DNA of 64,000 nucleotides from a virus, in the IMG/VR virus record IMGVR_UViG_3300039183_000005, positions 104,333 to 168,332 of that record, one strand, 5' to 3'. A program made the position numbers and the translations under genes. The number at the start of each line of letters is the position of its first letter. The first letter of the stretch is position 1. Under the pieces are notes generated by a model. It was given only the letters and a program-made list of their open reading frames with translations, made no database searches and had not been told where the DNA came from. Below, one piece after another: positions 8,946 through 40,017 of this stretch.

Positions 8946-8975
8946 TCAATATCTACCAATATGTAATTTTATTAA

Positions 8976-17274: not shown

Positions 17275-19282
17275 TTATATTTGTTTTTTTTTCTTGGTTT
17301 TATATGCTTTTTGATTTTTAATAGCTTTTTCCAACAAACGAATCATTGGTACTACTTTTCTGTGATCAAGTGCTAAGCCATATTCTTTCGAGCAACTACC
17401 CAATGGACATTTTTTGCATTCTTTGTGTAGATAATGCTGACACAATGCACAGGATTCGTCGTCTATCGTTAAACCATCATCATCATCATATATTTCAAGT
17501 CCGCTAAACTTAACATTATGTTTCTTTCTATTTCGATATAATAGCCCCCTCCATTTTCTAAGAGAATGTTTCAATGCAAATCTTTTTGATACTTCGTACG
17601 CTGGTGTTTTATAAAATTCTTTTTTCCATGAATCTAAACTCATTTACTTATCCTTTCTCAATTCTTTTAACATTTGACGCTTTTCTTCTTCGACTTTGTC
17701 CAAATCTATATTGAAAAACTCTGCCAAAAGTTTTTCTGTATTCAAATACGTTGGACTATATTCCATTTCATCCTCACCATCTATCAACTGACATATGGTC
17801 ATTTCTTTAATATTTTGTAACCATTCCAAAAACTCACCAATTGCTTGAGACTTATCTTTGATAGCCACCATTTTTTCACATTCTGGATATTTGTTTTTCA
17901 TTTTTTTCTCATTAATCCGCTATATATCCACCACAAGTTGCCAAGAACAACTGCCAATTCCTTACCCATTTTATAAATTCTTCTGGTGTGCCACCCCATA
18001 GATGGTTAGCCTTATCCAAAACCTTCATTATTATTTCATCTGTGGTTCCAGCTATTTTGTCGGCTGTTGTCGCCGACATATGTTTATCCATTTGATATGG
18101 TACCCGGTGCCAGCCCTCCAACTTTCCTGTTTCTGGACAGGTAGGTAACCCTAGATGTTCATGAAGTATTCCCAAGAGATCGCATCCGCATACATTTGCA
18201 TCCCAACTACCATCGTCAAATTGAGACGAACAATGTGGTTTATTTTTTAAAATAGAACGATACGTTAAACTCATTTGATTTCCTTTCTAATATTTCGTAT
18301 TGTTGTTCCAATTAAATCTCGTCGTGCTGGTTGATTATCCAAATAATCATCATAACGATCAATTTTTCTTATGAATTCTTTAAGCTTTATTTGTTGAGAA
18401 CATAACACTATAAATCCAAACATATAGTTGTGCGGAACATCATTAGGCAATTTTTTAATTTTCATTATTTCATTTTGCCAACCTTTTATATAATATCCAT
18501 CTGGATACTTGATGTCAACAAAAAAATATCTATCTATATATGGTATTTGGCGATATCTAATTCTAAAATAATATCCATTGATACTTTTTAATATCATAGT
18601 TGGTGGTTTCATTTTTGTTTCCTAAATTCATTCAACAACTGTACTTTTCTTTCAAATTTATTATTTAAAATCCATCGAAATTACGATCGTATTTTTCTAT
18701 TTTATCGAAAAAATCGTATAACTCTTTATACCATTCTACATGAATAAATGATAACAGTTGACATAAGATTGATAAATTGCATTTACTCATATCAATTATA
18801 GATAATTCGTTAATATATCTATTTCCATCATTAATATCTATAATTAAAAGTCTATCCAATTTATTGCGAATTCTATACCTCAATCTAAATCTTCCTCTAA
18901 CCATCGTTGGTGCTCTCATCAAAGTTTAACTCCTTAATTATTTTTCTATTTTCATTTGTTTTAAGTCGATTTGTTCAATATTTGACAACATTGTTTTCAT
19001 CTTATTTATTTCTTTTTTAAGTAAACCGATACAATATCGCCTTGCTAATTCTGGATTTTTATATACAAATTTTTTAGTTTCTGGCGCAGCAAAATCTTGA
19101 TCGTCAGTACCAATCATAATTGTAGTAGTATTTGAATAATATCTTTTTGTAATGCCAACTACCCCACTTAACCTTTCAAACGATCGACAGCGTATTTTAT
19201 ATATTTTGCAACTACCTAACCAATAGCTTACCCAATAATAAACGTTTCCTTTTTTTATTTGATATCCATCTTTGGTTTTCAT
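17275..19282 (-). other. Six small hypothetical genes (17275-17643, 17644-17901, 17912-18274, 18271-18612, 18665-18922, 18938-19282)
   Basis: Contiguous coding-strand ORFs; no family recognised. Confidence 0.6.
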
Positions 19283-20730
19283 TTAATTTGATACTCCAGT
19301 TTAATACCACGAAACTCTCCGGGAGAAATTATCGCCAATTGATCTAATACTCTTTGTCTTAGACTAACGGCAATATCCAAAACAGTTTTCAACTCATTTG
19401 GTTTAATTGTATCAACTCTCCTGTGCGGAAATATTAACTTTAACAATCCCGATCCTATTCGAATAAGTGATCTCTGATCTCTTTGACCCATTTGGCCAAA
19501 ATTAACGTTTTGTAATATTACGTTGGCATAATTACGTTTTCTCATTCTATGCATTACTTCCGATATATAATCAGCCATAAATCCAAAATCTTTTGCAAAA
19601 TTAACTTCCCTAATTGGCCCAATGCGCCATCCAGGAACAAATCCGTGTATCCGATCAAGAAACGCCCTATCTTGACTGACTATTTGAGGAAACGGAGAAA
19701 ATAGATTTCGATATCTTGCGGTAACTTCTCTTTTTTCTCTATTGCAATCAATATTACCAACAAAAGTAATGCTGCAATCAGATGCAAATTCGGCAGTTCC
19801 TCTACCAAACCTACCGCTATTCATAAAATCTTTCAATAAATCTATTAAATCTCCTTGTCCAGACCATTTATTGCCACCACGACTATTGGCAAATTCGTCG
19901 AAAGCAACAACATCTCGGTATCCTATTAATCCCAACCTATTACGAAGTTTATCGTAAAACAAAGAAGCAATGGTAGTTTGAGACCCAGAAATAACAAATC
20001 CGTAAGAGCTTAATGATTGATAGGCAAATGTCTTTCCAGTCATCGTAGGGCCTAGTTCAACCATATTCACATTAGATTCAATAAAAGGAATCATCCTTAC
20101 CATATACAACCATTTTTCTTCTTCAGAAAGATTGGTTGGATCAAACCCGATACTCGTTATCATTAAGTTGAGCCATTCTTCGTCTGAAAATTGTTCTCGA
20201 CGCTTAATCCATATATCCACATTGATATCGGTTATTTGTATTGGTTTAAATTCGGTCAACAAAAACGGATACAGTTTTTTCCTCATAACATAAGATTCGT
20301 CGTATACTATTTTAAAGATACCCCATGCTCCACTTGTTAATAACGTATCTCCGTATTCTACGATGAGGTGTGGATTGATGCGAACATACTGATTCCCTAG
20401 CGCCGTGACATCTACCCAATATTCATCCTTGCCTTCATCAAATCGACAACGGATACGACCAATCAGGGTGTACTCCCCCTGCTCCCTGATTCTGCTCTTA
20501 ACCAATTCCTTTTTGTCAGACTCCATGAAATGCGCATCGAGAAGTTGGCTGATTTTTTCCATGCCAGGAGTGGGGTTTTCAGGGTTGACAGCTTCCGAAA
20601 TCAAATAGTCGACCACGAAACTTGGGAGCTTACGAAATTGTTCGTTAAGACAGCCCAAACTTTTGTCTATTATGATCCCGTGTTCAGGGAAAACCTCAGA
20701 AGCCTTTTGTTTCGCTGTAGTGACTGTCAT
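19279..20730 (-). CDS. BrxL-like MCM-type AAA+ ATPase without a Lon protease domain
   Basis: LPSFVVDYL (BrxL N-domain); NMVELGPTMTGKT; VAFDE; AFLDRIHGFVPGW; ends at 483 aa. Confidence 0.82.
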   Translation of the reverse strand: MTVTTAKQKASEVFPEHGIIIDKSLGCLNEQFRKLPSFVVDYLISEAVNPENPTPGMEKISQLLDAHFMESDKKELVKSRIREQGEYTLIGRIRCRFDEGKDEYWVDVTALGNQYVRINPHLIVEYGDTLLTSGAWGIFKIVYDESYVMRKKLYPFLLTEFKPIQITDINVDIWIKRREQFSDEEWLNLMITSIGFDPTNLSEEEKWLYMVRMIPFIESNVNMVELGPTMTGKTFAYQSLSSYGFVISGSQTTIASLFYDKLRNRLGLIGYRDVVAFDEFANSRGGNKWSGQGDLIDLLKDFMNSGRFGRGTAEFASDCSITFVGNIDCNREKREVTARYRNLFSPFPQIVSQDRAFLDRIHGFVPGWRIGPIREVNFAKDFGFMADYISEVMHRMRKRNYANVILQNVNFGQMGQRDQRSLIRIGSGLLKLIFPHRRVDTIKPNELKTVLDIAVSLRQRVLDQLAIISPGEFRGIKLEYQIK

Positions 20731-22329: not shown

Positions 22330-22836
22330 CTAGTCTTTATTTTGTCGAGTTACAACGTTTTTCAAAAGAGTGCGCAATACATTTTTATTAGCATTCCCGT
22401 CATCTAAATTCATGTTATCTATGATAAGCTTGCCGTTTAAATGATCGATTTCATGCTGCCAAATTCTAGTTGTAATTGCGTCTCCTATAAATTTTAGTGG
22501 CCTACCATTAATGCCGGTTCCGTCAAGTATTGACGATGTTGCTCTTTGTATTGTCACATTAACTCCTGGTATTGATAGACACCCTTCTCTGGACTCAATT
22601 TTGCCACTAATACAACTAAGTACTGGATTCCATATTGCTTGATCTTGTTCGTTTTGCTTCCAAACGAACATGCGGATATTCAATCCGACTTGTGTCGCAG
22701 CAAGTCCTGCCCCATGGTTTTTTCTCATGATTTTCCACATTTTTGATACAAGTCTAGCTCTATCTTTTGGGGATTCCGTTGGTGCTTCAATACATTTGAC
22801 CAACAATTTTGGGTTTGGATAATATATTAATCGCAT
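22330..22836 (-). CDS. def: Peptide deformylase
   Basis: GAGLAATQVG; EGCLS; QHEIDHLNG. Confidence 0.95.
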   Translation of the reverse strand: MRLIYYPNPKLLVKCIEAPTESPKDRARLVSKMWKIMRKNHGAGLAATQVGLNIRMFVWKQNEQDQAIWNPVLSCISGKIESREGCLSIPGVNVTIQRATSSILDGTGINGRPLKFIGDAITTRIWQHEIDHLNGKLIIDNMNLDDGNANKNVLRTLLKNVVTRQNKD

Positions 22837-23831: not shown

Positions 23832-24182
23832 CTAGAATGCGTGTATTTGTTTATCCCATCCCGAGTATAAAACATTTACATTGTATTGTTTGAGTAATTT
23901 TTGACATTCAGCGCATGGCTTTGCCATTGATAGTCCATGTTTAGTTATCCTTATGATAAGTATGGTTATATTCTTGAATCTATTGAATGCCTTTAGCTTG
24001 TGTAATTTATACAAAAGAACTTCTTCTGCATGTTGTGTAAATTTTCCTTCATGTTTATTGAATCGCCTATTATGTGCTGTGGCTATAATTTCGCCAGAAC
24101 CAGAAAAAGCTATTGCCGCTACTTTAGCTCGTTTTACATTACTATATTTAGCCGTCTTGATTGCTATTTCTGATATAGACAT
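23832..24182 (-). CDS. Small zinc-dependent cytidine-deaminase-fold protein
   Basis: HAEE and KPCAEC motifs. Confidence 0.75.
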   Translation of the reverse strand: MSISEIAIKTAKYSNVKRAKVAAIAFSGSGEIIATAHNRRFNKHEGKFTQHAEEVLLYKLHKLKAFNRFKNITILIIRITKHGLSMAKPCAECQKLLKQYNVNVLYSGWDKQIHAF

Positions 24183-24683: not shown

Positions 24684-25021
24684 TATTGTTTCCTTAATTG
24701 TTCTTCTATAAATTGTTCTATTTTTGATTGTTGATCTGGCCACTCTGGATAATCTAATAAAAATCTATTACATTTTACGCACCTACATTCAAACGGTGAT
24801 AGCCAGTTATCAAATTGCTGCCAAACTTCATGCCAATTTATAATTACACCACGCTCATACAATAATGCTTCTATTTTCTTTTGTTGTAATTCCCATGGAG
24901 GATCATATAGGAGTTTTTCCTGTCCACATGATTTGCAAGTAGGTGGACTTTTAGTTATATTATAAGACCAATCTTCAAATTCTTCCCAGAGTCTTTTCCA
25001 GTTTATTTTTTGTTTATCCAT
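24683..25021 (-). CDS. Hypothetical protein made of two tandem ~55-aa CxxC domains
   Basis: INWKRLWEEFEDW..CKSC..PPWELQQKKIE versus INWHEVWQQFDNW..CVKC..PEWPDQQSKIE. Confidence 0.65.
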   Translation of the reverse strand: MDKQKINWKRLWEEFEDWSYNITKSPPTCKSCGQEKLLYDPPWELQQKKIEALLYERGVIINWHEVWQQFDNWLSPFECRCVKCNRFLLDYPEWPDQQSKIEQFIEEQLRKQ

Positions 25022-25227
25022 TATCTTCCTCCAAGTTGACGATTTCTTGTTTCAATGGTCCTTCTTTGTCGATATTCCGGTTTATCTCTTTGTAACGTTT
25101 GTTCACCAAGAGCATGTTCTACTTCGGATATAAAATGGGCACATTCTGTCCCCTGAAATCCTTCTCCATCTATAGAACAATTTCCATTAGCGTCTATGTC
25201 TATTACGATTTGTTTTTGCCCTCGCAT
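25021..25227 (-). CDS. DUF2997 family protein
   Basis: I.I.I..NG....EGFQG.EC....E.ALG.....KPEY. Confidence 0.75.
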   Translation of the reverse strand: MRGQKQIVIDIDANGNCSIDGEGFQGTECAHFISEVEHALGEQTLQRDKPEYRQRRTIETRNRQLGGR

Positions 25228-25539
25228 TATTTCTTCTCCGCTTCATACATCAGTTCTTCGAAGTATGCATTACTTTCTGATTCAGTTAGGCGACTTCTTA
25301 GTTTTTTCTTTCGTTTTTCGGCTAGCGCTAAAGCATCGCTTGCATCACACAAACAATCAATTGCCGATTTAAAACGACCTAAGTCTGTTTGTATTTGTTC
25401 TATAGTCATTATACGCCTAGGGCTCTTTCTAGTTATAATTTCTGTTTCTGTGTAAATTGAAATACTGACATCTGATTCTCCCATAATTTCTTCTAGCTCG
25501 CACAATCCATTAGTACGTATATAAGAATCATCTTTTAGT

Positions 25540-25791
25540 CTAATTTTCATAATATTGGTTTCCTGGAGAAAATTTTTCTATTTCCCATTCTATCGCATTC
25601 TCTCTGTTTTTGTTCGTATACAATACTTTCCCGTCAAGTGATGTAACTTGCCATTTTTGCAATTTCTCGCAGAACTCCACGTTGGATGCCTTGCGCACAT
25701 TTTGAACGCGCCCGATGGCAAACAGGTCGATTTTGTCAGTGTATAATCCATGAACATTTCCTTTATCACAAATTTCTAGAACTATTTTCAT
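25540..25791 (-). CDS. Small conserved protein of the kind that accompanies DUF1257/DUF2997/AAA clusters
   Basis: G.V..LY...IDL...G.....ASNVEF....W....R..AI.WE pattern (recalled family context). Confidence 0.55.
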   Translation of the reverse strand: MKIVLEICDKGNVHGLYTDKIDLFAIGRVQNVRKASNVEFCEKLQKWQVTSLDGKVLYTNKNRENAIEWEIEKFSPGNQYYEN

Positions 25792-26382
25792 AAATCATCC
25801 TTTTTTATATCATATTGTTTCATCAATTTTTCAGTACCACGGATGATATCAAATAAAAGTTCAATTGCCAATTTTTCTGCATTAATCATAGCGCACTTTC
25901 GAGTTGGTTTGTAGTCGCCCCTTCTTTCGAATAATGTTGTGCCATTTTGTTGCTGAAATCTAACAGTACCAAAGTAGCGTATTCCACTATAGTCTGGTGG
26001 CCATCCAAAGTTACAAATTAAGCGGATGTTATGCCATTTCGCTTCATGTAGGAATGAACTTTCAGTCTTATGCCATTTTTCAGTTAACTGTATTTTCATT
26101 TTTTGTTTCAACAAAATTAGGATATTGATGTAAGATTACTTTTTTGTTCATATTACACCCAATATTTACGCAACGTTCATGTTCCTAGAATTTAATAATG
26201 CTTGCAAATATAATTCTGTAGGATTTTTCCCAAATTGTGATTCTAGTTCGTCTGCTATTTCCGTCAATGAAAAACAAATTGTTTTATCGTTGCAACACTT
26301 ACACTTATTACCAAGTGTTTGTGCTTCTCTGCAAATGTGTGGACGACCTTCATTTCGCTTACATTTCGTACATTTATACATA

Positions 26383-27414
26383 TTATTTTCTCCTTGGTAA
26401 TGTTTCGTCCATAGATAATGGACTAACAATTATACATGATACTTTTTCTCTTAACTGAGCAATATTTTCAGAACCCCCCATTGCTAACCCAGACTTTATT
26501 CCATTAGCACATTCAGATATCATATATTCTGTTGATCCTTTATCGTCAACTTCCATGGAGATTCCTTCTGGTGCTATATCTGGTCGTTCTGATGCCATTC
26601 TAGAACTCATTCCTCGATAGATTCTGTTACCATTTATTTTTGGTGTATCACTTGTACCTGCCAACATGTAACCAATCATGCAGGCATCAGCACCACCCCA
26701 CAAACTTTTGACCATATCTCCAGAACTTCTAATTCCGCCATCTGCTATAATTGCTACATCTGGATATTCTTCTTTAACGCAAGAGGCACAGTCAAGTATG
26801 GCTGACATTTGGGGGCAGCCGAAGCCAGTTATTATCCTTGTGGTGCAGGCAGCTCCAGGGCCGATGCCGACCTTGATAGCATCAACGCCGCAAGACGCAA
26901 AAGTGAAGGCAGCTTTTGGTGTACACACATTCCCAGCCATTAAAACAAACTTATATTGATCCTTAAGGCTTACAACTCTACTTATTGCATCATACATCTT
27001 CGCATGATCACCATGCGCAACATCAATGCAAATTACATTACACCCATTATCTAATAAAGTTTTTGCCTTTTTAAGTGTATTTCCGCGAATACCGATGGCA
27101 CATCCTATATTTTTTGCTCCCATAGCAATGGCCAGCTTGATTTCATCGACCTGTTTTACCAACTCTTTGTCGTCCGGCATATTGATATAACGAGTTAAAA
27201 TACCTAGACCGCTACATCTGTCCATGGTTGCTAACATTTCGTGTCCAGTTATTGTATCCATTGGAGCAGAAATTATAGGTACTTTAAGTTTTAAAAACCC
27301 AATTTGAGTAGATATGTCTGGGATTGTTCTTGATGATAGTGTTGAATATTGTGGTACAAGTAGAATATCGTTAAAGCATATTTTTTGATTTTGTTTGTAT
27401 TCGTATGTCCACAT
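26383..27414 (-). CDS. IMP dehydrogenase/GMP reductase family protein, no CBS domain
   Basis: FNDILLVPQ; PIISAPMDT; IDVAHG; KVGIGPGAACTTR; IIADGGI; YRGMSS. Confidence 0.88.
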   Translation of the reverse strand: MWTYEYKQNQKICFNDILLVPQYSTLSSRTIPDISTQIGFLKLKVPIISAPMDTITGHEMLATMDRCSGLGILTRYINMPDDKELVKQVDEIKLAIAMGAKNIGCAIGIRGNTLKKAKTLLDNGCNVICIDVAHGDHAKMYDAISRVVSLKDQYKFVLMAGNVCTPKAAFTFASCGVDAIKVGIGPGAACTTRIITGFGCPQMSAILDCASCVKEEYPDVAIIADGGIRSSGDMVKSLWGGADACMIGYMLAGTSDTPKINGNRIYRGMSSRMASERPDIAPEGISMEVDDKGSTEYMISECANGIKSGLAMGGSENIAQLREKVSCIIVSPLSMDETLPRRK

Positions 27415-27847
27415 AATATTTTCCTATTTACTAAGCATTTCTATACATTCTGTACAAGTTGGTTGACGGAACTCAAGGCCCAACGGTAACGTTATCCAAT
27501 GGTTACATTTAGTTTTTACATGATCTCTATATCTAATTGATTTGCCAGCACACGCACACCAACCATCGTTGTGTTGTACACAGGCGATACATTCTGATAT
27601 TTTTTGTTTATTAAGAAAGATGTTATGTAAAGATTTGGCAGATTCTAACGCTGCTGACAAATCGTTAAATATTTTTTTATCCAATGAATTAATGACATCT
27701 TCTCTTCCACAGATTTCCCAACCAAAGTCAGTCTTACGGATAAAAGTACCAAGTCCGTCATGTATATGAATAGACCTATTTTGTTCTAGTAATTCAATAA
27801 GCCAATTTGGATCATGTTGTATTACTGATTTTTTATTTAATTTTGAT

Positions 27848-28372
27848 TTATTCATTGTGCTGAATTTCCTTTGTCAATAGTACTCTGACTTTATTTAATT
27901 CATCTTCAGTGTGAATAGTGCCGCCGGAATTGATATCCAAATACCATTGAAGTACTTCTCTACGAGTTTTTAGATTGTTTACATGAAAACACAAATGGAC
28001 ATCAAACGGTTTGTCTACAAAATCAGAAATATATAGTCCACGAAAAACTGGAACTTTACCAGCCATAAAATCCAAACAAGCAGTGAGACGTTGTTTTCCA
28101 ACTACAAGTTCAAATGGTCCGTCGTATGAACCTTGCCATCCTGGGCAATTAAAGTAAAAATCTTTAGATGAATTTCCACCACTTAGAATAAATTCAATAT
28201 AACGAGATTGTTGCTTTGGAGTCCATACATGGATTCTTTGAAAATCTGGCTCTAAATTCAGTGGACATAAGTGTTCTTCTTGATACTTTTTTATGGTTGA
28301 TGGTAACGTATGAAGAAAGTGATGAACCGAATATACCGGTTGACTTATTTGTGGAATATCAGCAAATTTCAT
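27848..28372 (-). CDS. DUF262 (ParB/Srx-like) domain protein
   Basis: PDFQR.HVW...Q...I..IL; VGKQRLT (DGxQR variant); IN.GG. Confidence 0.75.
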   Translation of the reverse strand: MKFADIPQISQPVYSVHHFLHTLPSTIKKYQEEHLCPLNLEPDFQRIHVWTPKQQSRYIEFILSGGNSSKDFYFNCPGWQGSYDGPFELVVGKQRLTACLDFMAGKVPVFRGLYISDFVDKPFDVHLCFHVNNLKTRREVLQWYLDINSGGTIHTEDELNKVRVLLTKEIQHNE

Positions 28373-28381
28373 TGATATCTC

Positions 28382-28759
28382 CTATAATTCTATTCGTCTT
28401 ACCAACGAATGCCTTCTTTTTTCTGTTGGTTTTGTTACTGGCTTTGGCTTCTTGATCCTGACCTGACTGATTTGTCCGTCACCATTGGATGCAGTCACAG
28501 CACCACACATAATAAAAAACTGAGATGGACTAATTAAATCGATACCCATAGAGCGTGCTTTTTCGGCTTTGATAGATTTACTGTTTGCATCAGCAATTAC
28601 TAGAATGGTAGTTCTGCTTGTGACAGAATTGGTTACATCTGCGCCAGCGTTTAGTGCGATTGCTTGCATTTCCGAACGCGGTTTTGGAGATTTACCGGTG
28701 AAACAGAAAACCGCTTCTTTCAAGCAACCTGTGTCTTCGTTGATAAATTTTAAAGCCAT
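28382..28759 (-). CDS. Stand-alone BRCT domain protein
   Basis: FCFTG...R......AGA.V..SV...T.ILV....S.K..KA...GI.LI. Confidence 0.85.
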   Translation of the reverse strand: MALKFINEDTGCLKEAVFCFTGKSPKPRSEMQAIALNAGADVTNSVTSRTTILVIADANSKSIKAEKARSMGIDLISPSQFFIMCGAVTASNGDGQISQVRIKKPKPVTKPTEKRRHSLVRRIEL

Positions 28760-29172
28760 TACCTATATCCGGTTACAATCACTCTTTGGTGACCATTTGG
28801 GCAACGTTCCCTGGTAACACTCCGACCACGAGATTCTTGCTCTCTTCGAATTCTATGGTAGGCATAGTTTCCAGTTAGACTACCTATCCATTTTTTCCCA
28901 TATCGCCCTGAATCGTATTCAGAAATTATTGCTTCGTATTTACCATCTTCTCGTTTTACAAAACCAATATCATTAGATGCGGAACCAACGTGTTTGCGCC
29001 TAATTATAATATGGGCCTTTTGTTCTCGTTGATCACCATGGTATCCGAATAGATGTTGAGGAACTTCGTGGATTTCTATTTGACCAGTAGTCCATTTCCC
29101 CGTTTCAACGAGTGCGTCAATAAGTGAGTCTTGATCTTTGAATTCGGTTTGTACTTCACAATATCTGCTCAT
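28759..29172 (-). CDS. DUF1257 family protein
   Basis: T.FKD...L..AL...G; GY.G; ASNDIGF....DG.Y..I; W...L...YA. Confidence 0.8.
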   Translation of the reverse strand: MSRYCEVQTEFKDQDSLIDALVETGKWTTGQIEIHEVPQHLFGYHGDQREQKAHIIIRRKHVGSASNDIGFVKREDGKYEAIISEYDSGRYGKKWIGSLTGNYAYHRIRREQESRGRSVTRERCPNGHQRVIVTGYR

Positions 29173-29364
29173 ACTTTTAATCCTTATCAAAATCTATTAG
29201 AAAGTCAAAAAATTCACCATTTTCAGAGATCATTTCTGCTCTACCACAGGGATGTAAACGATTGAATAACTGGTCTGACAATGTTGCTATGACAAAGATT
29301 GCTTCTTTTTCTGTGAAAAAAAATCTAGTGGTTTCCGATATTCCTTTTCTATTCTCTACTTTCA

Positions 29365-30192
29365 TTACAGTTTCCCCAGAGATTTTAGTAATCGTGCCCT
29401 CGCGAATGCATTCAGAGGTGGAGTTACCATCTCACTTTGGTGGACACAATTTATTTCACCACATTTGTTGCAGCAATACGGTTGGTCACCATCAAGGCTA
29501 CGACACCATGCTTCTGGATCATCACCGCAAGGAATAAACTCCTCATCATTACAGCAACAGAGTTCAGATAATTCTTCACATTTTGGACACATTTCTTCTA
29601 GACATTCATCGCAGAATTTTGATTCGGAAGCCCTGTCGTTTGTGCCACACATATCGCACCCAGCATTATTATTGTTTTCGTTTTCATAATCGTTTTCTAT
29701 AATTTTAACTGGCTTAAGTGCTACGGCGAATCTTGGAATATCTTTAGTTGGATCGAATGATTTATGTAAGCGAGCTAGTTCGCGAGCAACACCACCTAAA
29801 AGGCCAGTATCGAAATTAGTGAATAGTTTACCGCCAAGTTCAATTTCATTTCCGTATCCAGTATATTAGCCTGTCGTATAAGCCACGCCATCATGATAAC
29901 AACCACCCAAAATTACTTGTTTATCAACATTATGTGGTTCTGAAATGGGTATCACCGAGTCGATAGTCAAATCTTTTATAGCTCCACTCCAATTACAGTC
30001 TTTGGGTCTTACGCGAGTCAAACGACTCGCTGGAAGTTCACTGTGATTTATGTCGATGGTATTACCGGTTTTTTCCCAATACATCAATTTGTAATGTCTT
30101 CTGGTTTGTTCGTAATCTATTCCTGTTATTAGACAGACAACTTCATTATCATCGAATTTAGCTATAGCCAAGTCACCAATTCTAACTTTCAT
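29365..30192 (-). pseudogene. One ~275-codon ORF (SH3-like N-terminus, Cys-rich C-terminus) interrupted by a TAA at 29866-29868
   Basis: The frame stays open for 71 codons after the TAA and joins 29365-29652, completing GCDMCG. Confidence 0.6.
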
Positions 30193-30207
30193 ACTCTGTC
30201 TCCAGTT

Positions 30208-31218
30208 TTACAAAATAACTCGCCTTTTAAGTTCACCAATGAATCCACGACAATCCTGTCCTTCAGCAGCAGCTTTATTGCGAATTGCTTCAAGAGATTT
30301 ACTGATACTATCTTTTACGGTAGCGGATTCAAAGTCTTTTGGTGTGACACCAGAATCCAAAAATGTATTTCGGAAGTCTACCAGCATTTTTTCAATTTCG
30401 CCGTCGCCGAAGATGTTCATAGACCTAAAGCGGTCTACATATTTCCGGAAGCACGAGATTGATTTCGGAGTTAGTTTCTTTGCATCGCTTTCATCTCCAT
30501 ATGGTTTACCGCTTATGCGTGCCGTCATAAGTTTACAAAATCGAATAGTTTCGTTACGCATAGAAGTCACGTACTCGCTTACGAAGTTGCCCACTTCGGT
30601 TTGCATTTGACGACGCAGCTCATTCTCTTTCTCGTCTTGCACTTTTTGTCGAGCAATTACTTCTTCAACACTGGTTTCTTCTATCGATCCTATACCAGCA
30701 ATTTTAAACGTAAACCAATCGAATTGAAATTTTGCCCGCAGGGCTTGTGGATTTGCCGGATAATGACCCCTTAGACACTTGTTCCAAAAATCTGGATGTG
30801 TTTCTCTTACTGTACGAACAAGATCATCGAAACGAGAAATGAAACTATCTACTCGTTCAAAAAATTCTTCTTTTAAATCTTTAATTTGTTGTTCCACTGT
30901 TGGGAGCATTTTTGCTGGAACAAAATGGGAGCTACTGATACCGAATGGCACAGACCACCTTTCCAGTGCTTTTCGAGCACGCTGTTCGATTTGGGTTAAA
31001 TGTTGTAATTCAGATTTTGGCACCATTAATTTGCGACCAAGATTGCATATTTCTTCTGGAAGTTTGTCTGGGTCGTATCCTATCTTTACTAAATCTGCGC
31101 GAGTAATCATTTTTCGCGCGCTCCACATACGAACTCTAAGGTTCACCAGTAATCCAACATCAAATAAGTTTATGGCATCTTGCTTTGTGTCTTTGTTTTC
31201 GGTTACAATTGTACTCAT
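30208..31218 (-). CDS. DUF3150-like helical protein
   Basis: LV.L.V..WSARK; LGRKL; PF....FVP; YP....LR.KF.F.W. Confidence 0.65.
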   Translation of the reverse strand: MSTIVTENKDTKQDAINLFDVGLLVNLRVRMWSARKMITRADLVKIGYDPDKLPEEICNLGRKLMVPKSELQHLTQIEQRARKALERWSVPFGISSSHFVPAKMLPTVEQQIKDLKEEFFERVDSFISRFDDLVRTVRETHPDFWNKCLRGHYPANPQALRAKFQFDWFTFKIAGIGSIEETSVEEVIARQKVQDEKENELRRQMQTEVGNFVSEYVTSMRNETIRFCKLMTARISGKPYGDESDAKKLTPKSISCFRKYVDRFRSMNIFGDGEIEKMLVDFRNTFLDSGVTPKDFESATVKDSISKSLEAIRNKAAAEGQDCRGFIGELKRRVIL

Positions 31219-31235
31219 GTTCTCATCTTCCTTTC

Positions 31236-32795
31236 TTAATTTAAACTGATTTTTCTTTCACCAATTTTTGGCGGTGCAGTTTTTGGTGGTGGATTGGCAG
31301 GCTTAGCGTGATTAGCGCACCATTGTCTAATGTTTGCTACGCGACTAGCTTCTGTTTTTGATAAAGGTATAATTTCCGGAACAGCTTGTTTTAAGTGATA
31401 GGTTTTAAGTTGTTCCTTTTTCGAAAACGCCATTTTTAGACCAAGCTTAACAACTTGCTCAATATCGGCGCCAGTAAAGCCATCGGTTGATTTTGCCAAC
31501 ATATTAATGTCGAAATCATTTGGATCACGATTTCTTTTAATTAAATGTATAGTGAATATTTCTATACGCTCTTTTTCTGCTGGAAGATCAAGGCCATATA
31601 TTTCGTCGAATCGGCCTTTTCTGGAAAGTTCTGGAGGAAGTGATTGAATTTGGTTTGCAGTAGCGATTATGTATACCGAGGACTGTCTATCGTTTAACCA
31701 TTTTATAAATGATCCGAATAATCTGCGAGATGCCCCGCCATCAAAGTCGCCAGAGCCACCGAAACCTTTTTCTATTTCGTCTAAAACCAATTCGCATGGA
31801 GATACGCTTTCTATCATTTTAATAGCCTCTCGCATATTTCGTTCCGATTCTCCAACGAACTTGTTCATAAGATTGCCGACATCCATTGCAATAATTGGCA
31901 ACCCTAGTTCAGATGCAATAGCGGAAGATAATAGAGTTTTTCCGCATCCCTGCAATCCGACAAGCATAAGACCCCGTGGGAATTCAATGCCGAAATCCCT
32001 AGCTTCTTTTGAAAAACATGGACGATCTAACAAAACATGCTGTTTAATTGCGTCATAACCACCAACCAAAGATAGTCCGCCACTGGGCGGTTCAATATAG
32101 GTTAATAACCCAGATGCCCGAATTACTCCAGCCTTTTCACGAATAATAGTTTTGATTGCATCACCATTTAAGTCTTTATGTTTTCTTAATGCCAATGCTA
32201 CTCTATCGACAATTTGTTGAGAGGTCATACCCCTACATGCGTCTACAATTTTTGGGATAATGGTTTTGCTTGGTTCAAATTTAGTTCCATCAGATTTTGT
32301 TACTTCGCTACATACAAAATCGATTCGTTCATTAATTTGTTCATTATTTGGTAATGCGAAATCCATTTGAGTTATGTCGTGAGATAGTGATTTCGGGATA
32401 TCAAAATTAGGTCCGACCATAACTATTGTTTGTTGCACAGAAGCTACAATTTTTCGAAGTTCGTCTAGCCAGCCAATTACTACGTCGTATCGTGGATATG
32501 TTACGTGTTGAAAATATTCACCACAATCACGTAGGATGCAGATTGTTTTTTCTGGAAAATCTACTATGGCTTGTATATGATCTTCTACCGGGGCGGCTGG
32601 TACTACTTCGCAAACTTTGTTGCCATTTTCGTCGATCCATCCCTGCGCAATAGACCAAATATATACTTTACGATCTATCTTTTTCGCTACTTTCGCAATT
32701 TCGCTGATGGCACGATCTTTTTCGAAAGTGTCGACATGTAACAAGGCATGACCAGAACAACAGTAATCGGCAAAATCCTCACCAAAATTATTCAT
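31236..32795 (-). CDS. Ycf46-like AAA+ ATPase (degenerate N-terminal module, active C-terminal module)
   Basis: PRGLMLVGLQGCGKT; VGESE; LDEIEKG; RKGRFDE; GFTGADIEQ. Confidence 0.88.
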   Translation of the reverse strand: MNNFGEDFADYCCSGHALLHVDTFEKDRAISEIAKVAKKIDRKVYIWSIAQGWIDENGNKVCEVVPAAPVEDHIQAIVDFPEKTICILRDCGEYFQHVTYPRYDVVIGWLDELRKIVASVQQTIVMVGPNFDIPKSLSHDITQMDFALPNNEQINERIDFVCSEVTKSDGTKFEPSKTIIPKIVDACRGMTSQQIVDRVALALRKHKDLNGDAIKTIIREKAGVIRASGLLTYIEPPSGGLSLVGGYDAIKQHVLLDRPCFSKEARDFGIEFPRGLMLVGLQGCGKTLLSSAIASELGLPIIAMDVGNLMNKFVGESERNMREAIKMIESVSPCELVLDEIEKGFGGSGDFDGGASRRLFGSFIKWLNDRQSSVYIIATANQIQSLPPELSRKGRFDEIYGLDLPAEKERIEIFTIHLIKRNRDPNDFDINMLAKSTDGFTGADIEQVVKLGLKMAFSKKEQLKTYHLKQAVPEIIPLSKTEASRVANIRQWCANHAKPANPPPKTAPPKIGERKISLN

Positions 32796-32849: not shown

Positions 32850-33062
32850 TTATTCTTCTAGCAAATTGCGCGCAGTAAACAATTCGCTTCTAGTCGCATC
32901 AGCATCAAAACGCAGATATGTTACTAGTATTGCTACATGATCCAGCAATACTTCGATTTCGTCTTTGTGCAGATGGGATTGTTTTCTAGTCATTAGGTCT
33001 GAATCAATATCGGCCCTATCTAGAATAACTCTTAGCCTGGCTGCGATCTTCTTTTTGTCCAT
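32850..33062 (-). CDS. Small coiled-coil protein, paralog of 33746-33922
   Basis: YLRFDADATRSE....LLE. Confidence 0.6.
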   Translation of the reverse strand: MDKKKIAARLRVILDRADIDSDLMTRKQSHLHKDEIEVLLDHVAILVTYLRFDADATRSELFTARNLLEE

Positions 33063-33067
33063 ACCTT

Positions 33068-33094
33068 ATTATACGTGAAACCAAGTATTTTGTT
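33068..33094 (-). promoter_or_regulatory. Putative phage-specific promoter AACAAA-N15-TATAAT
   Basis: Minus strand AACAAA ATACTTGGTTTCACG TATAAT, 5 nt before the ATG at 33062. Confidence 0.7.
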
Positions 33095-33640
33095 TCACCG
33101 AAATCTAATTTTTTTCAGTATCGGTTATCGGAACTACAGCACCACTTTCGTTCCTTACTAAGTTAATTTTCTTCAACAGTCTCTTTTCTGTCTTGCAATC
33201 CGCTTCACAAAGTTGTTCCCAATGAGCGTTGCAAATGTTACGACCGATATACCTAAGCTCTGCGTAACATCTACATTTCGGAAACTCACATTGTTCCATA
33301 TGAATTATTCTTCAACTTTATCCGTTACGACATCTGGGTCCAAGTCTGTTTTGCTAATCTCGCCGCCGTACTGAACATCTCCACAATCCGATAAGACATG
33401 CCCCATTTTTCTAAGAATACTTGCACCCCTTCTTCTATCGTTTGTATTTTTCAATTGGTTTGCAAGTGATCCCATAATCCCTTTCTGAATAACGATAGTC
33501 GTTTCTCCTGTTTTTGTGTTGACTTCAATAATTTCGAATGCCGGATTGTTTCTATTTTTTTCATTACTAGACATTTTTCTTACTCCTGTTTTCCGACTGA
33601 CTTTTATGGCCGATTGTACGTAATCGGCTCTACACACCAA

Positions 33641-34147: not shown

Positions 34148-34909
34148 TTATTTTCCTTGTTTTTTATCTCGTTCCATACATGAAAAACAGTCCATTCCTA
34201 AATCCAGTTGTTCTGCCCTCCATTTCCAGACGTGTTTTCTTGCGTCGTAGTAGTCAATTTCGCCGAAGTGTTTCCACGGGAAATATCCCATAGGGCACAA
34301 TGTTATCATACCTGTTTCTATTACCATCAATTGCCCTGTTTCTTTGCAACACCCACAGCAAACTTCGAATTCACGACTTGATAGGTGATTATCCCATGCT
34401 CTTCCAAGCGGCAATAGCTTATTATCTGGAATATTTACTCCATAAATCAATTTAGCTTTTGGACTGTGTTCGCGATATAGTCGTTGTGCTCGTTTGCTGA
34501 ATTTCTGGTGCCATTTATCATCGGATATTGCCACAAGAACTTCGTCGCAGATTTCACAAACAGAATCTATTGATAATAGGAACTTATTCGTAGCCATTTT
34601 GTCGTAGGCCCATTGACCGTTTGTAACTATAGATGCTTTATGTCTACCAGATGTCAGAGCTATGAGAATTTCTGGATAGTCTGGAAGTATCGTGAACTCT
34701 CCACCCATTATGTTTATTCTTATGTTTTTCGGCAACCATGTGTTTAATAATTCGCAGTCTCGGATAGATAACTGACCTATACATTCAGGGCCAGACCTGA
34801 AACAACAATGAGAACACCGTTCGTTACACTGGTTTGTCACCCTAGCCACAAATTCATTGGTCCATGAATTATTGCTCCACTTACTAAACCAGTGATTATA
34901 CTTTGGCAT
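34148..34909 (-). CDS. Radical SAM protein with a twitch/SPASM-like C-terminus
   Basis: CNERCSHC (CX3CX2C); MGGE; TNG; GRA; C-terminal G...LCP. Confidence 0.85.
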   Translation of the reverse strand: MPKYNHWFSKWSNNSWTNEFVARVTNQCNERCSHCCFRSGPECIGQLSIRDCELLNTWLPKNIRINIMGGEFTILPDYPEILIALTSGRHKASIVTNGQWAYDKMATNKFLLSIDSVCEICDEVLVAISDDKWHQKFSKRAQRLYREHSPKAKLIYGVNIPDNKLLPLGRAWDNHLSSREFEVCCGCCKETGQLMVIETGMITLCPMGYFPWKHFGEIDYYDARKHVWKWRAEQLDLGMDCFSCMERDKKQGK

Positions 34910-35678
34910 GAATTTTTTCTCTCGACAACCTGATAGATTGATCATGCTCCATGCATGAGCAGCAAGTCATCCCTCTTGTAAGTTGTTCTGATCGCCAATT
35001 TAATACATATTCCTTAGCTTCATACCATGAAGTCTCTGTGAAATGTTTCCACGGAAAATAACCAAACGGACACTTACACACCATTCCGTCTTCTGATATG
35101 AACATATTACCCATTGTGTTACATCTTGCCCATTTTTGTGGATCGGGGACAATATTATTATCCCACGCTCTTCCAACCGGAACAATCTCCGATACAGGAA
35201 GATTACCAGGATCAACTAATGTGACTTTTGGACAATTATTCTGCATAATTTCAAATGCTTTTGGCCACGTATGTTTGTGCCATTTGTCCGTTGATATAGC
35301 GACATCAACTTCTTTACATATTTCTGTAAGAGAGTTAATGGTTTTTATGAAATTTTTTCTGATTGTGAATATGCGAAACCATTGTCCATTTGTAACAATG
35401 CGGATATGATTTCTGTTTTTTGCCAGTACGTAAAGAATTTCTGGATAATTATGCAATATAGTTATTTCACCACCCATTATATTCGGACTAACATCATGCG
35501 GTATCTATCTATTAATATCGATACAATCATTAGTAGATATGTGGCCAACACATTTTGGGCCAGACCGGAAAGCACAGTGAATACACTTTTGATTGCATCT
35601 GTTTGTAACTCTTACTACACAGGCATTTATTGTTGTATTTGTTGTCCATATTTTTGGATATTTTTTATTGCTACTCAT
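34896..35678 (-). pseudogene. Paralogous radical SAM gene with an in-frame TAG at 35505-35507
   Basis: From ATG 35678: ..VTNRCNQKCIHCAFRSGP..DCIDINR*IPHDVSPNIMGGE... The stop aligns with Trp in the paralog (LNTWLP). Confidence 0.8.
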
Positions 35679-36238: not shown

Positions 36239-36892
36239 TCATTTGGTCCCCATTTCATTGGTCAGCAAATTTACATCGATTTCTTTATCTATTTCGCATC
36301 CACGAAGCCACTTGGCGAATTGTGCTACTCTTATGCCAGCCGATACGTTTGCGCAATAAATTGTTGTTTTTGCAGTACATGACCCAGAATAAGTTTCTCT
36401 CTGTGGGAATAGCGTTGTGTTATAGTGCTCTTTAGATTCTTCGTCGTGTGCGACGAAGATTCTCATATATTCTGCACTCATTCTTCCATCGATAAATAAG
36501 TCAGCTCGATTTTTGACTGCGTTAAAAATAGATTTTCGTGTTTCAATACTGTCTACACAACAAAATAACACACCTCCGGTAAACTGGATTGACATGAATT
36601 TTTTATTTGCAGTGTTTATTTCTATCGCCGGATTAATCATGCGACAAACATCTGCCGTTGCGTCAACTTTAGCACGACCCAAATCTGCTTCGAAATATCC
36701 TTGTGCTGCCAGATTTTCTACTTTTACTATATCAAAATCAATTAATTGAATTTTGGGCACACCAATTGCCGCTAGTTGCAGTGCAACCTGACGGCCACCA
36801 GCGCCAACTCCCACCACAGTCACTTTTGTGTCTTGCAATTTTTCTGGTGGAATTAGTTCTCTCTGACGGATGTCTCTATTTTCAATATTCAC
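36239..36892 (-). CDS. ThiF/E1-like Ubl-activating enzyme
   Basis: VVGVGAGG; IDFDIV...NL..Q; K; CVDSIETR; FIDGRM; candidate catalytic Cys in GSCT. Confidence 0.9.
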   Translation of the reverse strand: MNIENRDIRQRELIPPEKLQDTKVTVVGVGAGGRQVALQLAAIGVPKIQLIDFDIVKVENLAAQGYFEADLGRAKVDATADVCRMINPAIEINTANKKFMSIQFTGGVLFCCVDSIETRKSIFNAVKNRADLFIDGRMSAEYMRIFVAHDEESKEHYNTTLFPQRETYSGSCTAKTTIYCANVSAGIRVAQFAKWLRGCEIDKEIDVNLLTNEMGTK

Positions 36893-36924
36893 GCTTATTC
36901 CTCCATCATTGCCAAATCGCGTTC

Positions 36925-37836
36925 TTATAGATTTTCTTCAGCCCAAGCAACCACCATATTCGACCATTTTTGGATTGGTTTGTTTATCGCAACAATATCA
37001 TTTCGATTTTCACCAAAAGCATCTTCAGAAAACCATCTTTTTTCTATTGGATCATAAAAATACCACAAGGCATCATTATATTCAAAAAATGCAGCATAGC
37101 CGTTATCATCCCAATGGCAATCAAAGTCTAATTCTTCCACCCGATTAAGTTCATCCTGTTGCCGAGCCAACTGTTCGTACTTTTTATTCCACCATAGCGG
37201 GTCATCATCAGGTTTGTCGTCTTGTACCAGACAGGAACGAGTAATTCCACCTTCTTTTCCTGTCATGCAGAATTTCTCAATCTGTACTTTATCTTTATAT
37301 TCATTATTCCAGGCTTCAATGTTTGAACCATTAAATGGAACATTCCAATCTACTGCAATTTTTAGTTCTTTTACCACTCCCGGTCCAACGTTAATCTTCA
37401 ATCTACAGTAGATTTCTCCACCTCTTGCAATGATGAACATTATGGCCCAATATGGATGGGAAAACGCTTTTCGGAAATTTTCTTCATCGGTTCCGCTAGG
37501 TTGAGGACAATTTCCTGGATGGGAATGTAGTAAAATATTTTGACATGTCCAGGGCGGCATTCCAATATCCATCATTCGTTCTGCGTAATCCGCCATATCT
37601 TCTGAGTCAAAATCGAATGAAGCTCCAGTACATTTTTGTTTTATCAAAATGAAATCTGTAACTAAAAGTGGGTCTTCAGTTCCGGTTACTCCATAACCAG
37701 CTACTTCAGTTGGCCCTTTATCTCTCATATAAATTAATTTTGCAAAACTGTATGGAGTAAATCGCAATGTATCTCCAAAAGTCATTTTTGGCGTCGTGAA
37801 TTTTTTACTCATACTCCTATTCCTTCTAATAGACAA
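36925..37836 (-). CDS. JAB/JAMM (MPN+) metallopeptidase
   Basis: TEVAG (Glu) plus HSHPGNCPQPSGTD = HxH-x7-S-x2-D. Confidence 0.88.
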   Translation of the reverse strand: MSIRRNRSMSKKFTTPKMTFGDTLRFTPYSFAKLIYMRDKGPTEVAGYGVTGTEDPLLVTDFILIKQKCTGASFDFDSEDMADYAERMMDIGMPPWTCQNILLHSHPGNCPQPSGTDEENFRKAFSHPYWAIMFIIARGGEIYCRLKINVGPGVVKELKIAVDWNVPFNGSNIEAWNNEYKDKVQIEKFCMTGKEGGITRSCLVQDDKPDDDPLWWNKKYEQLARQQDELNRVEELDFDCHWDDNGYAAFFEYNDALWYFYDPIEKRWFSEDAFGENRNDIVAINKPIQKWSNMVVAWAEENL

Positions 37837-39059
37837 CCATGTTCTTCAAGACAGGATGAACACATTGGAACTCCACAGTGTTCACATGTTGTTTGACAAT
37901 CTTCGCAAATACTCTTTTGACAACTATGACATTCATCAAGACACTCTTTGCAGCAATTCTCTTCACAAAGACCGCATGTAATCATACATTTTTCACATAT
38001 AGGTTTATTGCAACAAGAACACGCCGATATACATGGATTGCAGAAATATTCCTGACAAATAGTGCATTGGCTTAGACACGACGAACAGTAATTTTTTTCG
38101 CATTCGGTACACATACTTGCACAGTTGTTGCAAAGTGCCTCTCCGCATTCATTACATTGTGTACCACATTCACTACACATCCATTGGTCACACACACAAC
38201 ACGCATCACCATTTTCTGCACAATTTTCACAGTAGTTACAGTCACACATTGCACAATAGTACCCACATTCATCTGGACACCATTCCCTACAATTTTCACA
38301 ACAGAACTCCCCTTCGTGGTCTGGTTCATACCATTTTTCTAATTTGTCATACGGTGAATCATCATTATATGTTCGTAGAATAGATTCTACAACTCTAAAA
38401 CAATCTTCGAGTCTACCCTGGCATATGGCATTTGTTATAGCTTCTTCTCCTTTCCCTTGACATAAAGATTCATCTCCAATGTGTGGATGATAATATCCTC
38501 CTAATGATTGTATTTCATTTACTGACTCTATAGTTATGTTATACGGATTCGTTAGATCAATGTGTACCCAAAAGTGCCCAAGGTCTACTTCTTCATTTTC
38601 ATCTTCGAGCACAACATCCTCGATAAGTACCGATAGTTTGTTGTCGCGAAATTTAACATTTTTCCAGGCGTTGCTAATTATTCTAATTTCTTCTGTTATT
38701 TCTTTTAGCGACAATGGTGTTACTAGACCTTTTTCTGTCATGATTTTAATTATTGCCATTGCTTGGCGTGTCATTTCTATAACACTATCTCCAATGTTTG
38801 GAATCATGGTTGTCGCAATATTTTCGTATACACTTGGATTTACAATTCCCAGATGTCGGACTGATGGTTCCCATTCATTAACTTGGACACGCGGACTTGT
38901 TCCAGCAATAAATCTATCGTACCATCGTTTTATTTCTTCCAATTTGATAGCAGCATTTGTTATTGCATTACTTGCGCTCATATTGAGATTAACAGATTGT
39001 TGTTCCACCATCCATTTGTGATATTTGATAGCAGCTCTGCGTATTAGTTTTTCATTCAC
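37809..39059 (-). CDS. Prokaryotic E2-like protein fused to about 10 Cys-rich repeats
   Basis: LGHFWV.I; HPHIGDESLC (E2 active-site-like); ILRTYN..SPY; C-terminal (CxxC-x4-CxxC-x3) repeats. Confidence 0.72.
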   Translation of the reverse strand: MNEKLIRRAAIKYHKWMVEQQSVNLNMSASNAITNAAIKLEEIKRWYDRFIAGTSPRVQVNEWEPSVRHLGIVNPSVYENIATTMIPNIGDSVIEMTRQAMAIIKIMTEKGLVTPLSLKEITEEIRIISNAWKNVKFRDNKLSVLIEDVVLEDENEEVDLGHFWVHIDLTNPYNITIESVNEIQSLGGYYHPHIGDESLCQGKGEEAITNAICQGRLEDCFRVVESILRTYNDDSPYDKLEKWYEPDHEGEFCCENCREWCPDECGYYCAMCDCNYCENCAENGDACCVCDQWMCSECGTQCNECGEALCNNCASMCTECEKNYCSSCLSQCTICQEYFCNPCISACSCCNKPICEKCMITCGLCEENCCKECLDECHSCQKSICEDCQTTCEHCGVPMCSSCLEEHGCLLEGIGV

Positions 39060-39471
39060 AGTAAATTTTTCCTATATTTAAAACCGATTATTTTGCCAAA
39101 TTAACAAATTTAGTATTCCGACTAAAATTCGACGAAAAATTTACCATTTGATTCTCGCCATATAATACACTTATTGTTTACGTCATATTCCTACGGTAAG
39201 GCTAACTAGCCTTACTTTTGGTCAAGTCAGGTGGATTGTTTTATTCATCTGATCTTGCTAGACATTCAGCCAGTCCTCCGACATAATCTTCTAGGTGAAG
39301 TAACACTTCACTATATCCAAATGCGTGACCTTTTTCCCAAGCCATATACGATAGCCAGCCACGAAATTTTTTGGGAATTCGATTTAGAAGTTCGGTTTGC
39401 TTGGCCTCGAACTCTTCTTCAGTTATTCTGCTCATTGTGTTTGCCTATAATTTGATACGTGATTATTAACC

Positions 39472-39505
39472 AAAAGGGGGTGGGGGAACGTATCTCCCCC
39501 ACCCC
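39472..39505 (-). terminator. Intrinsic terminator after the Ubl gene
   Basis: Minus strand 11-bp stem GGGGTGGGGGA/TCCCCCACCCC followed by CTTTT. Confidence 0.75.
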
Positions 39506-39540
39506 GTGTGGTATTAATACCGATGACCTTACACCATCTA

Positions 39541-40017
39541 TTACGAACGCTTCGTCAGCTTACTCCGAACCAACTCGGCATCTTCTTTACTAAGACCGCT
39601 AAGCAACTTGGAAACAGTCTTCGGAAGCTTATCCCTAGACATTTGTACTCTCTTTAATTTATATGCGAGAGTAAGTACATTTGGATCGGTATCGGCGGCA
39701 AGTCGCTCAGCGATAGTTACATTATCAGTGCTCATTTTGGTCCTCAGAGAAGCTATCTGCTCCTCATTTGTTCCTGGACCTTTACCCGCGTCGCCCTCGA
39801 TCTTTTTCGGCGCCAGACTTACCCTGTCACCGTCTTGAAGGACATAATCCAGATGAGCTTCGACAGTCATGCCATTTGCACGAACTCGGATTGTGAAATC
39901 ATCCAAATCGCGACCGAAAGAAACCTCAAGAAATTTTTCCAACGTCGTTCCATTGACAACGGGAATCTTGCGCGGAATACCAGAACCGTCATTTGTTACC
40001 AACATTACCTCGATCAT
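39541..40017 (-). CDS. Ubiquitin-like (beta-grasp) protein precursor with an 83-aa C-terminal extension
   Basis: V.LV...G..GTTL..FL...IRV.N....YVLQDGDRVSLAPKKIEG(75), then a helical basic tail; lies upstream of E2-JAB-E1. Confidence 0.8.
   Translation of the reverse strand: MIEVMLVTNDGSGIPRKIPVVNGTTLEKFLEVSFGRDLDDFTIRVRANGMTVEAHLDYVLQDGDRVSLAPKKIEGDAGKGPGTNEEQIASLRTKMSTDNVTIAERLAADTDPNVLTLAYKLKRVQMSRDKLPKTVSKLLSGLSKEDAELVRSKLTKRS

Follow-up and report, generated by a model that had tools for sequence, protein, structure and literature searches.

The window analysed here is the final 64 kb (positions 104,333 to 168,332) of a 168,332-bp uncultured virus record in IMG/VR (IMGVR_UViG_3300039183_000005), which is rated as complete by CheckV. 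Its G+C content is ~36%, and nearly all of its genes are carried on the minus strand. Two groups of genes in the window are the subject of this analysis (Table 1). The first is an operon at 36239-40017 that encodes, in this order, a ubiquitin-like protein (Ubl), an E2-like protein, a JAB/MPN peptidase and a ThiF-family E1-like enzyme. The second, which starts 3.4 kb downstream, comprises genes for a Ycf46-like AAA+ ATPase, a DUF3150 protein, a DUF1257 (Ycf35-like) protein, an 83-aa protein (p83) and a DUF2997 protein. A preliminary description had listed the latter five genes and suggested that the two groups may belong to one larger system. Indeed, Pfam and, for p83, phrog matches recovered all five genes on the minus strand at the positions described, the Pfam scores of AAA, DUF3150, DUF1257 and DUF2997 each lying above the curated cut-off. 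The set is also interrupted by unrelated genes, as had been described, namely BRCT, ParB/GmrSD_N-like and GMP reductase genes and small open reading frames (ORFs). The BRCT, ParB-like, GMP reductase and other such genes come and go between relatives of the window phage. Three small genes upstream of the ATPase gene are kept in all loci of the window-phage family, and none of them was seen outside it.

Table 1 Features of the window, with positions numbered from its first nucleotide.
Feature	Position	Strand	Evidence or remark
Ubiquitin-like beta-grasp protein (Ubl), 158 aa	39541-40017	-	Sequence and weak MoaD match; C-terminal extension
E2-like protein with CxxC zinc-finger array, 416 aa	37809-39059	-	Motif in alignment
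JAB/MPN peptidase, 303 aa	36925-37836	-	Pfam Prok-JAB 23.9 bits, slightly below the cut-off of 25
ThiF-family E1-like adenylating enzyme, 217 aa	36239-36892	-	Pfam ThiF 93.6 bits
Ycf46-like AAA+ ATPase, 519 aa	31236-32795	-	Pfam AAA 96.6 bits, and AAA_lid_3
DUF3150 protein, 336 aa	30208-31218	-	Pfam 79.5 bits; directly after the ATPase gene
DUF1257 (Ycf35-like) protein, 143 aa	28759-29190	-	Pfam 43.9 bits
p83, conserved 83-aa partner	25540-25791	-	phrog_38408 match
DUF2997 protein, 68 aa	25021-25227	-	Pfam 30.5 bits
Inserted block	26166-28759	-	Dispensable; also includes a 143-aa and an 87-aa ORF
BRCT	28382-28759	-	Pfam; inserted, dispensable
ParB/GmrSD_N-like	27848-28372	-	Pfam; inserted, dispensable
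GMP reductase	26383-27414	-	Pfam; inserted, dispensable
Three small genes (111, 64 and 70 aa)	32850-33640	-	Immediately upstream of the ATPase gene
Two tandem radical-SAM paralogues	34148-35678	-	Between ThiF and the ATPase gene
Upstream radical-SAM copy, 57-aa part	35505-35678		Contains CxxxCxxC
Upstream radical-SAM copy, 193-aa part	34896-35477
dCMP-deaminase-like	23832-24182
Peptide deformylase	22330-22836
BrxL homologue	19279-20730	-	PADLOC BrxL 426 bits; Pfam BrxL_N and BrxL_ATPase
ThyX	16431-17258
XerC/D-type tyrosine recombinase	15482-16366	-	End overlapped by the ClpP-like gene
ClpP-like	14839-15528	-	Outside the structural module

Beta-grasp homologues stand first in every Ubl-E2-JAB-ThiF operon that we found, and the order of the four genes is kept in all homologous loci; the Ubl homologue of locus L299 has a Pfam ThiS match. 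The E2-like protein matches no Pfam, NCBIfam or PADLOC family, and its alignment contains an invariant GGYxHPH..LC motif and ~22 invariant Cys (CxxC) pairs. When searched against PADLOC and NCBIfam, libraries that may lack Bil/Bub models, the four window proteins gave only a match to the E1 domain of CBASS E1-E2 and a weak JAB match, with none for E2 or Ubl. BilABCD and Bub (PMC10557695, PMC11601596) likewise have four core genes, for Ubl, E2, JAB peptidase and E1, and a Ubl made as a precursor, and the gene order of Bil is the same as that of the window. In contrast to these systems, the E2 of the window carries a ~170-aa CxxC array, no Bil- or Bub-specific model was matched, and the pathway is carried by a phage and has a link to an AAA+ module of five genes, of which both papers make no mention.

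The ATPase is composed of an N-terminal domain of ~230 aa and a single AAA domain (residues 276-403). It matches phrog_8638 over its full length, and its residues 1-500 align with cellular and viral homologues at 30-38% identity. It is a classical-clade AAA+ protein in which an N-terminal domain specific to the family is combined with one AAA domain. Since Walker A/B, the pore loop (K-F-V-G) and the arginine fingers (R..GRFD) are conserved, and since its best NCBIfam matches at the domain level are CDC48, PAN and FtsH, substrate threading by a hexamer is a fair inference. The CDC48 model scored 110.7 bits against a cut-off of 802.65, and neither tandem D1/D2 domains nor a double-psi-barrel N-domain was found; with only one AAA domain, the ATPase is not a member of the Cdc48 family.

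The five AAA-side genes form one module. All of them are present in every one of eight relatives of the window phage, whose ATPases are 66-76% identical. DUF1257 and DUF2997, which in the window are 2 and 6 kb away from the ATPase gene, are compactly arranged with it in loci L008 and L020, where the five-gene set is almost contiguous, and in the isolate phages HJ05 and L338C, where AAA, a 210-aa gene, DUF1257, DUF2997 and a p83-like gene stand consecutively. Further, the DUF3150 gene adjoins AAA in 32 loci, and DUF1257 is located at most 3 kb from AAA in many viral and cellular loci. Scanning of IMG/VR with the AAA alignment yielded 345 relatives, of which 70 distant ones were kept; iterated profiles, whose sensitivity limits these counts, detected DUF1257/DUF2997 within ~4 kb in ~27 of them, DUF3150 in ~10 and p83 in ~6. 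Among 80 cellular AAA loci from many phyla, at least 23 have DUF1257 and DUF2997 after the ATPase. Close relatives of the window phage, with the exception of family member L020, retain both the Ubl half and the AAA half, 3-10 kb apart. One further locus, L016, lies in a 'Candidatus Heimdallarchaeota' chromosome assembly (CP070695.1), in which ~65 kb of a close phage relative is spread over 47-173 kb. Integration of a related phage into this chromosome was considered and rejected: 100-N scaffold gaps flank the blocks, at 47.4, 93.9, 126.8, 151.1 and 173.0 kb, so these are contigs that were binned and scaffolded, and they prove neither integration nor an Asgard host.

As to the small partners of the ATPase, p83, which carries the motif R-[KR]-A-S-[NH]-V-E, has no Pfam family but is conserved, with homologues in 25 loci, and it resembles the gene that comes next to DUF2997, on its downstream side, in Aeromonas phage HJ05. 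DUF2997 is fused to DUF1257 in locus L028. An alignment of 45 DUF2997 sequences from phages, bacteria and archaea defined a domain of ~47 aa with one invariant cysteine (C29), an invariant G15 and three to four near-invariant glycines, a pattern which points to a residue that acts in catalysis or holds a ligand, more than to a simple adaptor. A role of DUF1257/DUF2997 as a glycyl-radical carrier for an NrdG-like activase was considered and rejected: the phage has no Fer4_12/NrdG-like gene, and a Gly-aromatic motif is not conserved. Comparison of AlphaFold2 models with the PDB gave nothing informative for DUF3150 (pLDDT 80), of which only the C-terminal helical bundle was matched, and this only by generic bundles, and no clear match for DUF1257 (pLDDT 94), the best being KA1/AMPK-type domains with a Z of 4.5. 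Searches by tblastn with DUF1257, DUF3150 and E2 against 50,697 isolate phages returned no match.

Further evidence on the relation of the two halves came from Planctomycetota. An initial contig scan with the E2 alignment gave no match. When an E2 profile was run on the whole genomes behind five cellular AAA loci, a match was obtained in Gimesia (Planctomycetota), on a different contig. Within 7.4 kb and on one strand, this contig carries DUF1257, DUF2997, AAA, DUF3150, p83, Ubl, E2, JAB and ThiF, and these nine genes are all that it has in common with the window phage. The E2 profile matched 42 of 401 Planctomycetota genomes, ~17 of them with strong core matches, often in several copies. We examined 21 E2 loci, the one in Gimesia and 20 others. 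Twelve of them have at least 5 kb of upstream sequence, and eight of these twelve show the full order DUF1257-DUF2997-AAA-DUF3150-p83-Ubl-E2-JAB-ThiF on one strand in ~8 kb; in the remaining four, AAA and DUF3150 (two loci), DUF3150 only (one) or none of the AAA-side genes (one) are present. Four loci cut by contig ends have the proximal genes. The preliminary description had stated that both gene sets occur together in Planctomycetota islands, and this is borne out by a compact, co-directional nine-gene cassette in at least eight genomes and by partial or contig-cut copies in more. Moreover, pairwise identities among the eight full cassettes are only 53-79% for AAA and 52-76% for ThiF; since the copies have diverged to this degree, the gene order has been maintained and does not merely reflect recent copying.

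Pfam confirmed DUF2997, AAA, a ThiS-like Ubl, Prok-JAB and ThiF in the cassette of L299. The divergent cassette copies of DUF1257, which the Pfam model does not detect, and of DUF3150 were assigned by hhalign with probabilities of 97.4% and 96.6%, the latter against the DUF3150 protein of the window. Some 21 strong canonical DUF1257 loci occur in the same 401 genomes and none adjoins E2, so that stand-alone and Ubl-linked modules coexist in Planctomycetota. The p83 gene lies between DUF3150 and Ubl in the cassette; in the cassette of L299 a DUF4230 gene (L299:7931-8668, plus strand) is found between p83 and Ubl. Identities between the window and cassette proteins are 43-52% for ThiF, 37-44% for JAB, 27-36% for AAA and 18-27% for DUF3150. 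These values hint mildly that the origin or host of the Ubl half of the phage is related to planctomycetes, and that its AAA half has changed faster or originated separately.

Three families of the module (Ycf46, Ycf35 and DUF2997) are shared with cyanobacteria and plastids. A duf2997-ycf35-fed7 cluster is known from cyanobacteria (PMC4284462), and Ycf46 has been described as a stress-induced, KaiC-interacting ATPase (bioRxiv 10.1101/2025.07.21.665879). Unlike these modules, the versions of the phage and the cassettes also include DUF3150 and p83 and are located next to a Ubl pathway. The Hsp70/GrpE and NrdG-like radical-SAM genes that have been reported for bacterial versions are missing from them.

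A second, independent linkage was found in the L072/L264 clade (IMG/VR 3300012953_000001 and relatives), which comprises phages of 178-181 kb with 49% G+C that have only AAA, ThiF and one other protein in common with the window phage. In these phages Ubl-E2-JAB-ThiF is followed by two genes of unknown function and ParB, and then by AAA, a gene for a RecA/KaiC-like ATPase, DUF2997, an NrdG-like radical-SAM gene and DUF1257; their Ubl ends in AGG, and their E2 combines HPH..C with a short cluster of Cys residues. When 171 ATPase sequences were placed in a tree, the window family formed one clade and the cassette ATPases another, both within a viral/mobile subclade (support 0.93) that also has 18 members without a nearby Ubl operon. 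The L072 ATPases are placed elsewhere, among cellular-type ATPases, and the AAA module of this clade is of another subtype. Hence Ubl and AAA genes became paired on at least two occasions, and the pairing is retained in three gene orders.

The PRTRC (ParB-related, ThiF-related cassette) systems of plasmids and integrative and conjugative elements likewise carry a ThiF/E2/JAB-type set on mobile DNA. One alternative is that the composite has a DNA-linked function of this kind and acts on DNA-bound proteins while the phage or element is being replicated or partitioned. The position of ParB in the L072 clade, after ThiF and before AAA, the RecA/KaiC-like ATPase that follows, the rank of PRTRC_ThiF as second-best model for the L072 ThiF (63.5 bits), the ParB-like and BRCT insertions of the window and the KaiC interaction reported for Ycf46 (bioRxiv 10.1101/2025.07.21.665879) would all be in keeping with it. 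However, the window ThiF reached only 32 bits against a PRTRC_ThiF cut-off of 144.75, no other curated PRTRC model was matched by the window proteins, and many relatives as well as the Planctomycetota cassettes lack the ParB-like and BRCT genes. We consider a function of the PRTRC kind very improbable.

Taken together, the adjacency of the two halves recurs with conserved order in diverged copies, so functional coupling is well supported, and since the same nine genes form a tight operon in many Planctomycetota, both halves probably work together. An interim view, that the halves are linked by synteny within the family of the window phage only, was overturned by the cassettes. The reading that we favour, with slightly better than even confidence, is that the window region is a phage copy, interrupted by insertions, of a composite system of nine genes in which Ubl conjugation is combined with an AAA+ motor and tagged proteins would be unfolded or extracted.

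Several observations weigh against this reading. Three complete viral genomes with direct terminal repeats (55, 60 and 180 kb) have a homologous Ubl-E2-JAB-ThiF operon and neither a Ycf46-like AAA nor a DUF1257 gene. Conversely, complete or near-complete viral genomes with AAA, DUF1257 and DUF2997, some of them also with DUF3150 and p83, have no ThiF anywhere. ThiF was not found on the 140-kb contig of family member L020, and the Planctomycetota locus L312, with 9.6 kb of upstream sequence, holds a Ubl operon without AAA-side genes. In the 80 cellular AAA loci, which include seven of Planctomycetota, no ThiF, JAB or Ubl gene lies at a distance of 10 kb or less, and Ubl-side genes, ThiF included, are nearby in only one of the 70 distant viral loci. 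The AAA-side genes of the phage are far less cassette-like than its Ubl-side genes, the two halves are separated in the window by radical-SAM and small genes, and the fold matches assign no function to the small partners. The same division is seen in isolate phages, in which the carriers of ThiF homologues (crAss-like, Flavobacterium and Xanthomonas phages) and the carriers of the ATPase are non-overlapping sets; ThiF was not found in HJ05, L338C or Catdawg. In crAss-like phages (Bacteroides phage crAss001 gp76-78; L107-L170), ThiF follows a metalloprotease-domain gene and a gene for an unknown 444-aa protein in the replication module. No AAA, DUF1257 or DUF2997 gene was found in these phages, and their ThiF set may be related to this Ubl pathway, in reduced form.

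Since each half often occurs on its own, the coupling of the halves is facultative. The independent phyletic patterns that the preliminary description had named as an argument against a single system are accordingly seen in part: each half stands alone in complete genomes, and the cassette and the L072 clade link the two. The same facts, as well as the 18 members of the ATPase subclade without a nearby Ubl operon and the unrelated genes between and within the sets in the window, would also be expected of two self-sufficient modules that travel together as accessory genes on mobile elements or in phage early regions. Against such passive co-location, order and strand are fixed in at least eight genomes although the cassettes are so diverged, an unrelated phage clade has joined the halves again with a different AAA-module subtype, and all three gene orders preserve proximity, which is the usual signature of functional coupling. 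We regard mere co-travel as a possible but rather doubtful explanation.

In the favoured nine-gene system, one half would comprise the Ubl, the E2 with its zinc-finger array, the ThiF-type E1 and the JAB peptidase, which would trim or remove the Ubl, and the other the Ycf46-like AAA+ hexameric motor with DUF3150, DUF1257, DUF2997 and p83. The Ubl would be attached to target proteins by E1 and E2, and the tagged proteins would then be engaged by the motor under the guidance of the small partners and be unfolded or extracted. DUF3150 and p83 are the best candidates for a bridge between the motor and the Ubl, because their genes are located between those of the motor and the Ubl in the compact operon. 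We infer an action of the motor on proteins carrying the Ubl from the gene linkage and from the precedents of ubiquitin-Cdc48/p97, archaeal SAMP-Cdc48/PAN and actinobacterial Pup-Mpa, in which a small protein tag is likewise combined with a classical-clade AAA+ unfoldase, CDC48 and PAN being the best domain-level matches here. In contrast to those systems, the N-domain of the window ATPase is unrelated and is joined to a single AAA domain, and the cassette has no proteasome or protease; the analogy is functional only. Tentatively, this may be a tag-and-unfold machine of prokaryotes and phages that evolved outside eukaryotes, with a dedicated AAA+ motor reading, via new adaptors (DUF3150, p83, DUF1257 and DUF2997), the Ubl marks that are written by the E1/E2 of the operon. 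A partnership with the phage ClpP, which had also been suggested, finds no backing in the gene arrangement: the ClpP-like gene is 10 kb off, and ClpP is in no cassette seen.

The motor might instead serve the Ubl pathway itself, by folding, assembling or recycling the E2, by processing the Ubl precursor or by stripping the Ubl together with JAB. The unusually long Cys array of the E2 may need assembly, the Ubl is made with a C-terminal extension, and the proteasomal JAB enzyme Rpn11 is driven by an AAA motor, an established fact cited in PMC11601596. However, complete genomes have Ubl operons with an E2 of the same architecture and no motor, and the motor module is widespread without any Ubl pathway. 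We think this alternative unlikely.

Several other genes of the window deserve mention. The two radical-SAM paralogues between ThiF and the ATPase gene are YydG/SPASM-like and not NrdG-like; the upstream copy is split into two parts, and its counterpart in relatives is a single ORF of ~308 aa. The BrxL homologue, a BREX component carried here by a phage, covers positions 9-472 of the 680-position model and apparently lacks the C-terminal Lon-protease part. Besides the ClpP-like gene of the window, which has ThyX, peptide deformylase and dCMP-deaminase-like genes in its vicinity, another ClpP-like gene is located at 8627-9100 of the full record.

In the literature outside subscription journals, we found no paper that ties the AAA, DUF1257, DUF2997 or DUF3150 families to a Ubl pathway, and for DUF1257, DUF2997, DUF3150 and Ycf46 only cyanobacterial and plastid notes. 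No AAA partner is described in the Bil and Bub papers (PMC10557695, PMC11601596) or in Iyer 2006. As for the role of the composite system, in the phage it could be host takeover, counter-defence or the exclusion of rival phages, and in bacterial elements it would more likely be defence. Bacterial Ubl conjugation systems (Bil, Bub and CBASS Cap2/3) are recent discoveries, and the fate of the tagged protein is mostly unknown. A conserved operon that joins a Ubl pathway to a Cdc48-like motor offers a concrete, testable downstream step for tagged proteins. In addition, DUF1257/Ycf35, DUF2997, DUF3150 and Ycf46, orphan families conserved from plastids to phages, are thereby placed in a context that can be tested, and the tag-and-unfold reading, if true, would provide the first function for the long-orphaned Ycf46/Ycf35 families. 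Moreover, phages have apparently captured the system at least two times, which bears on the conflict between phage and host.

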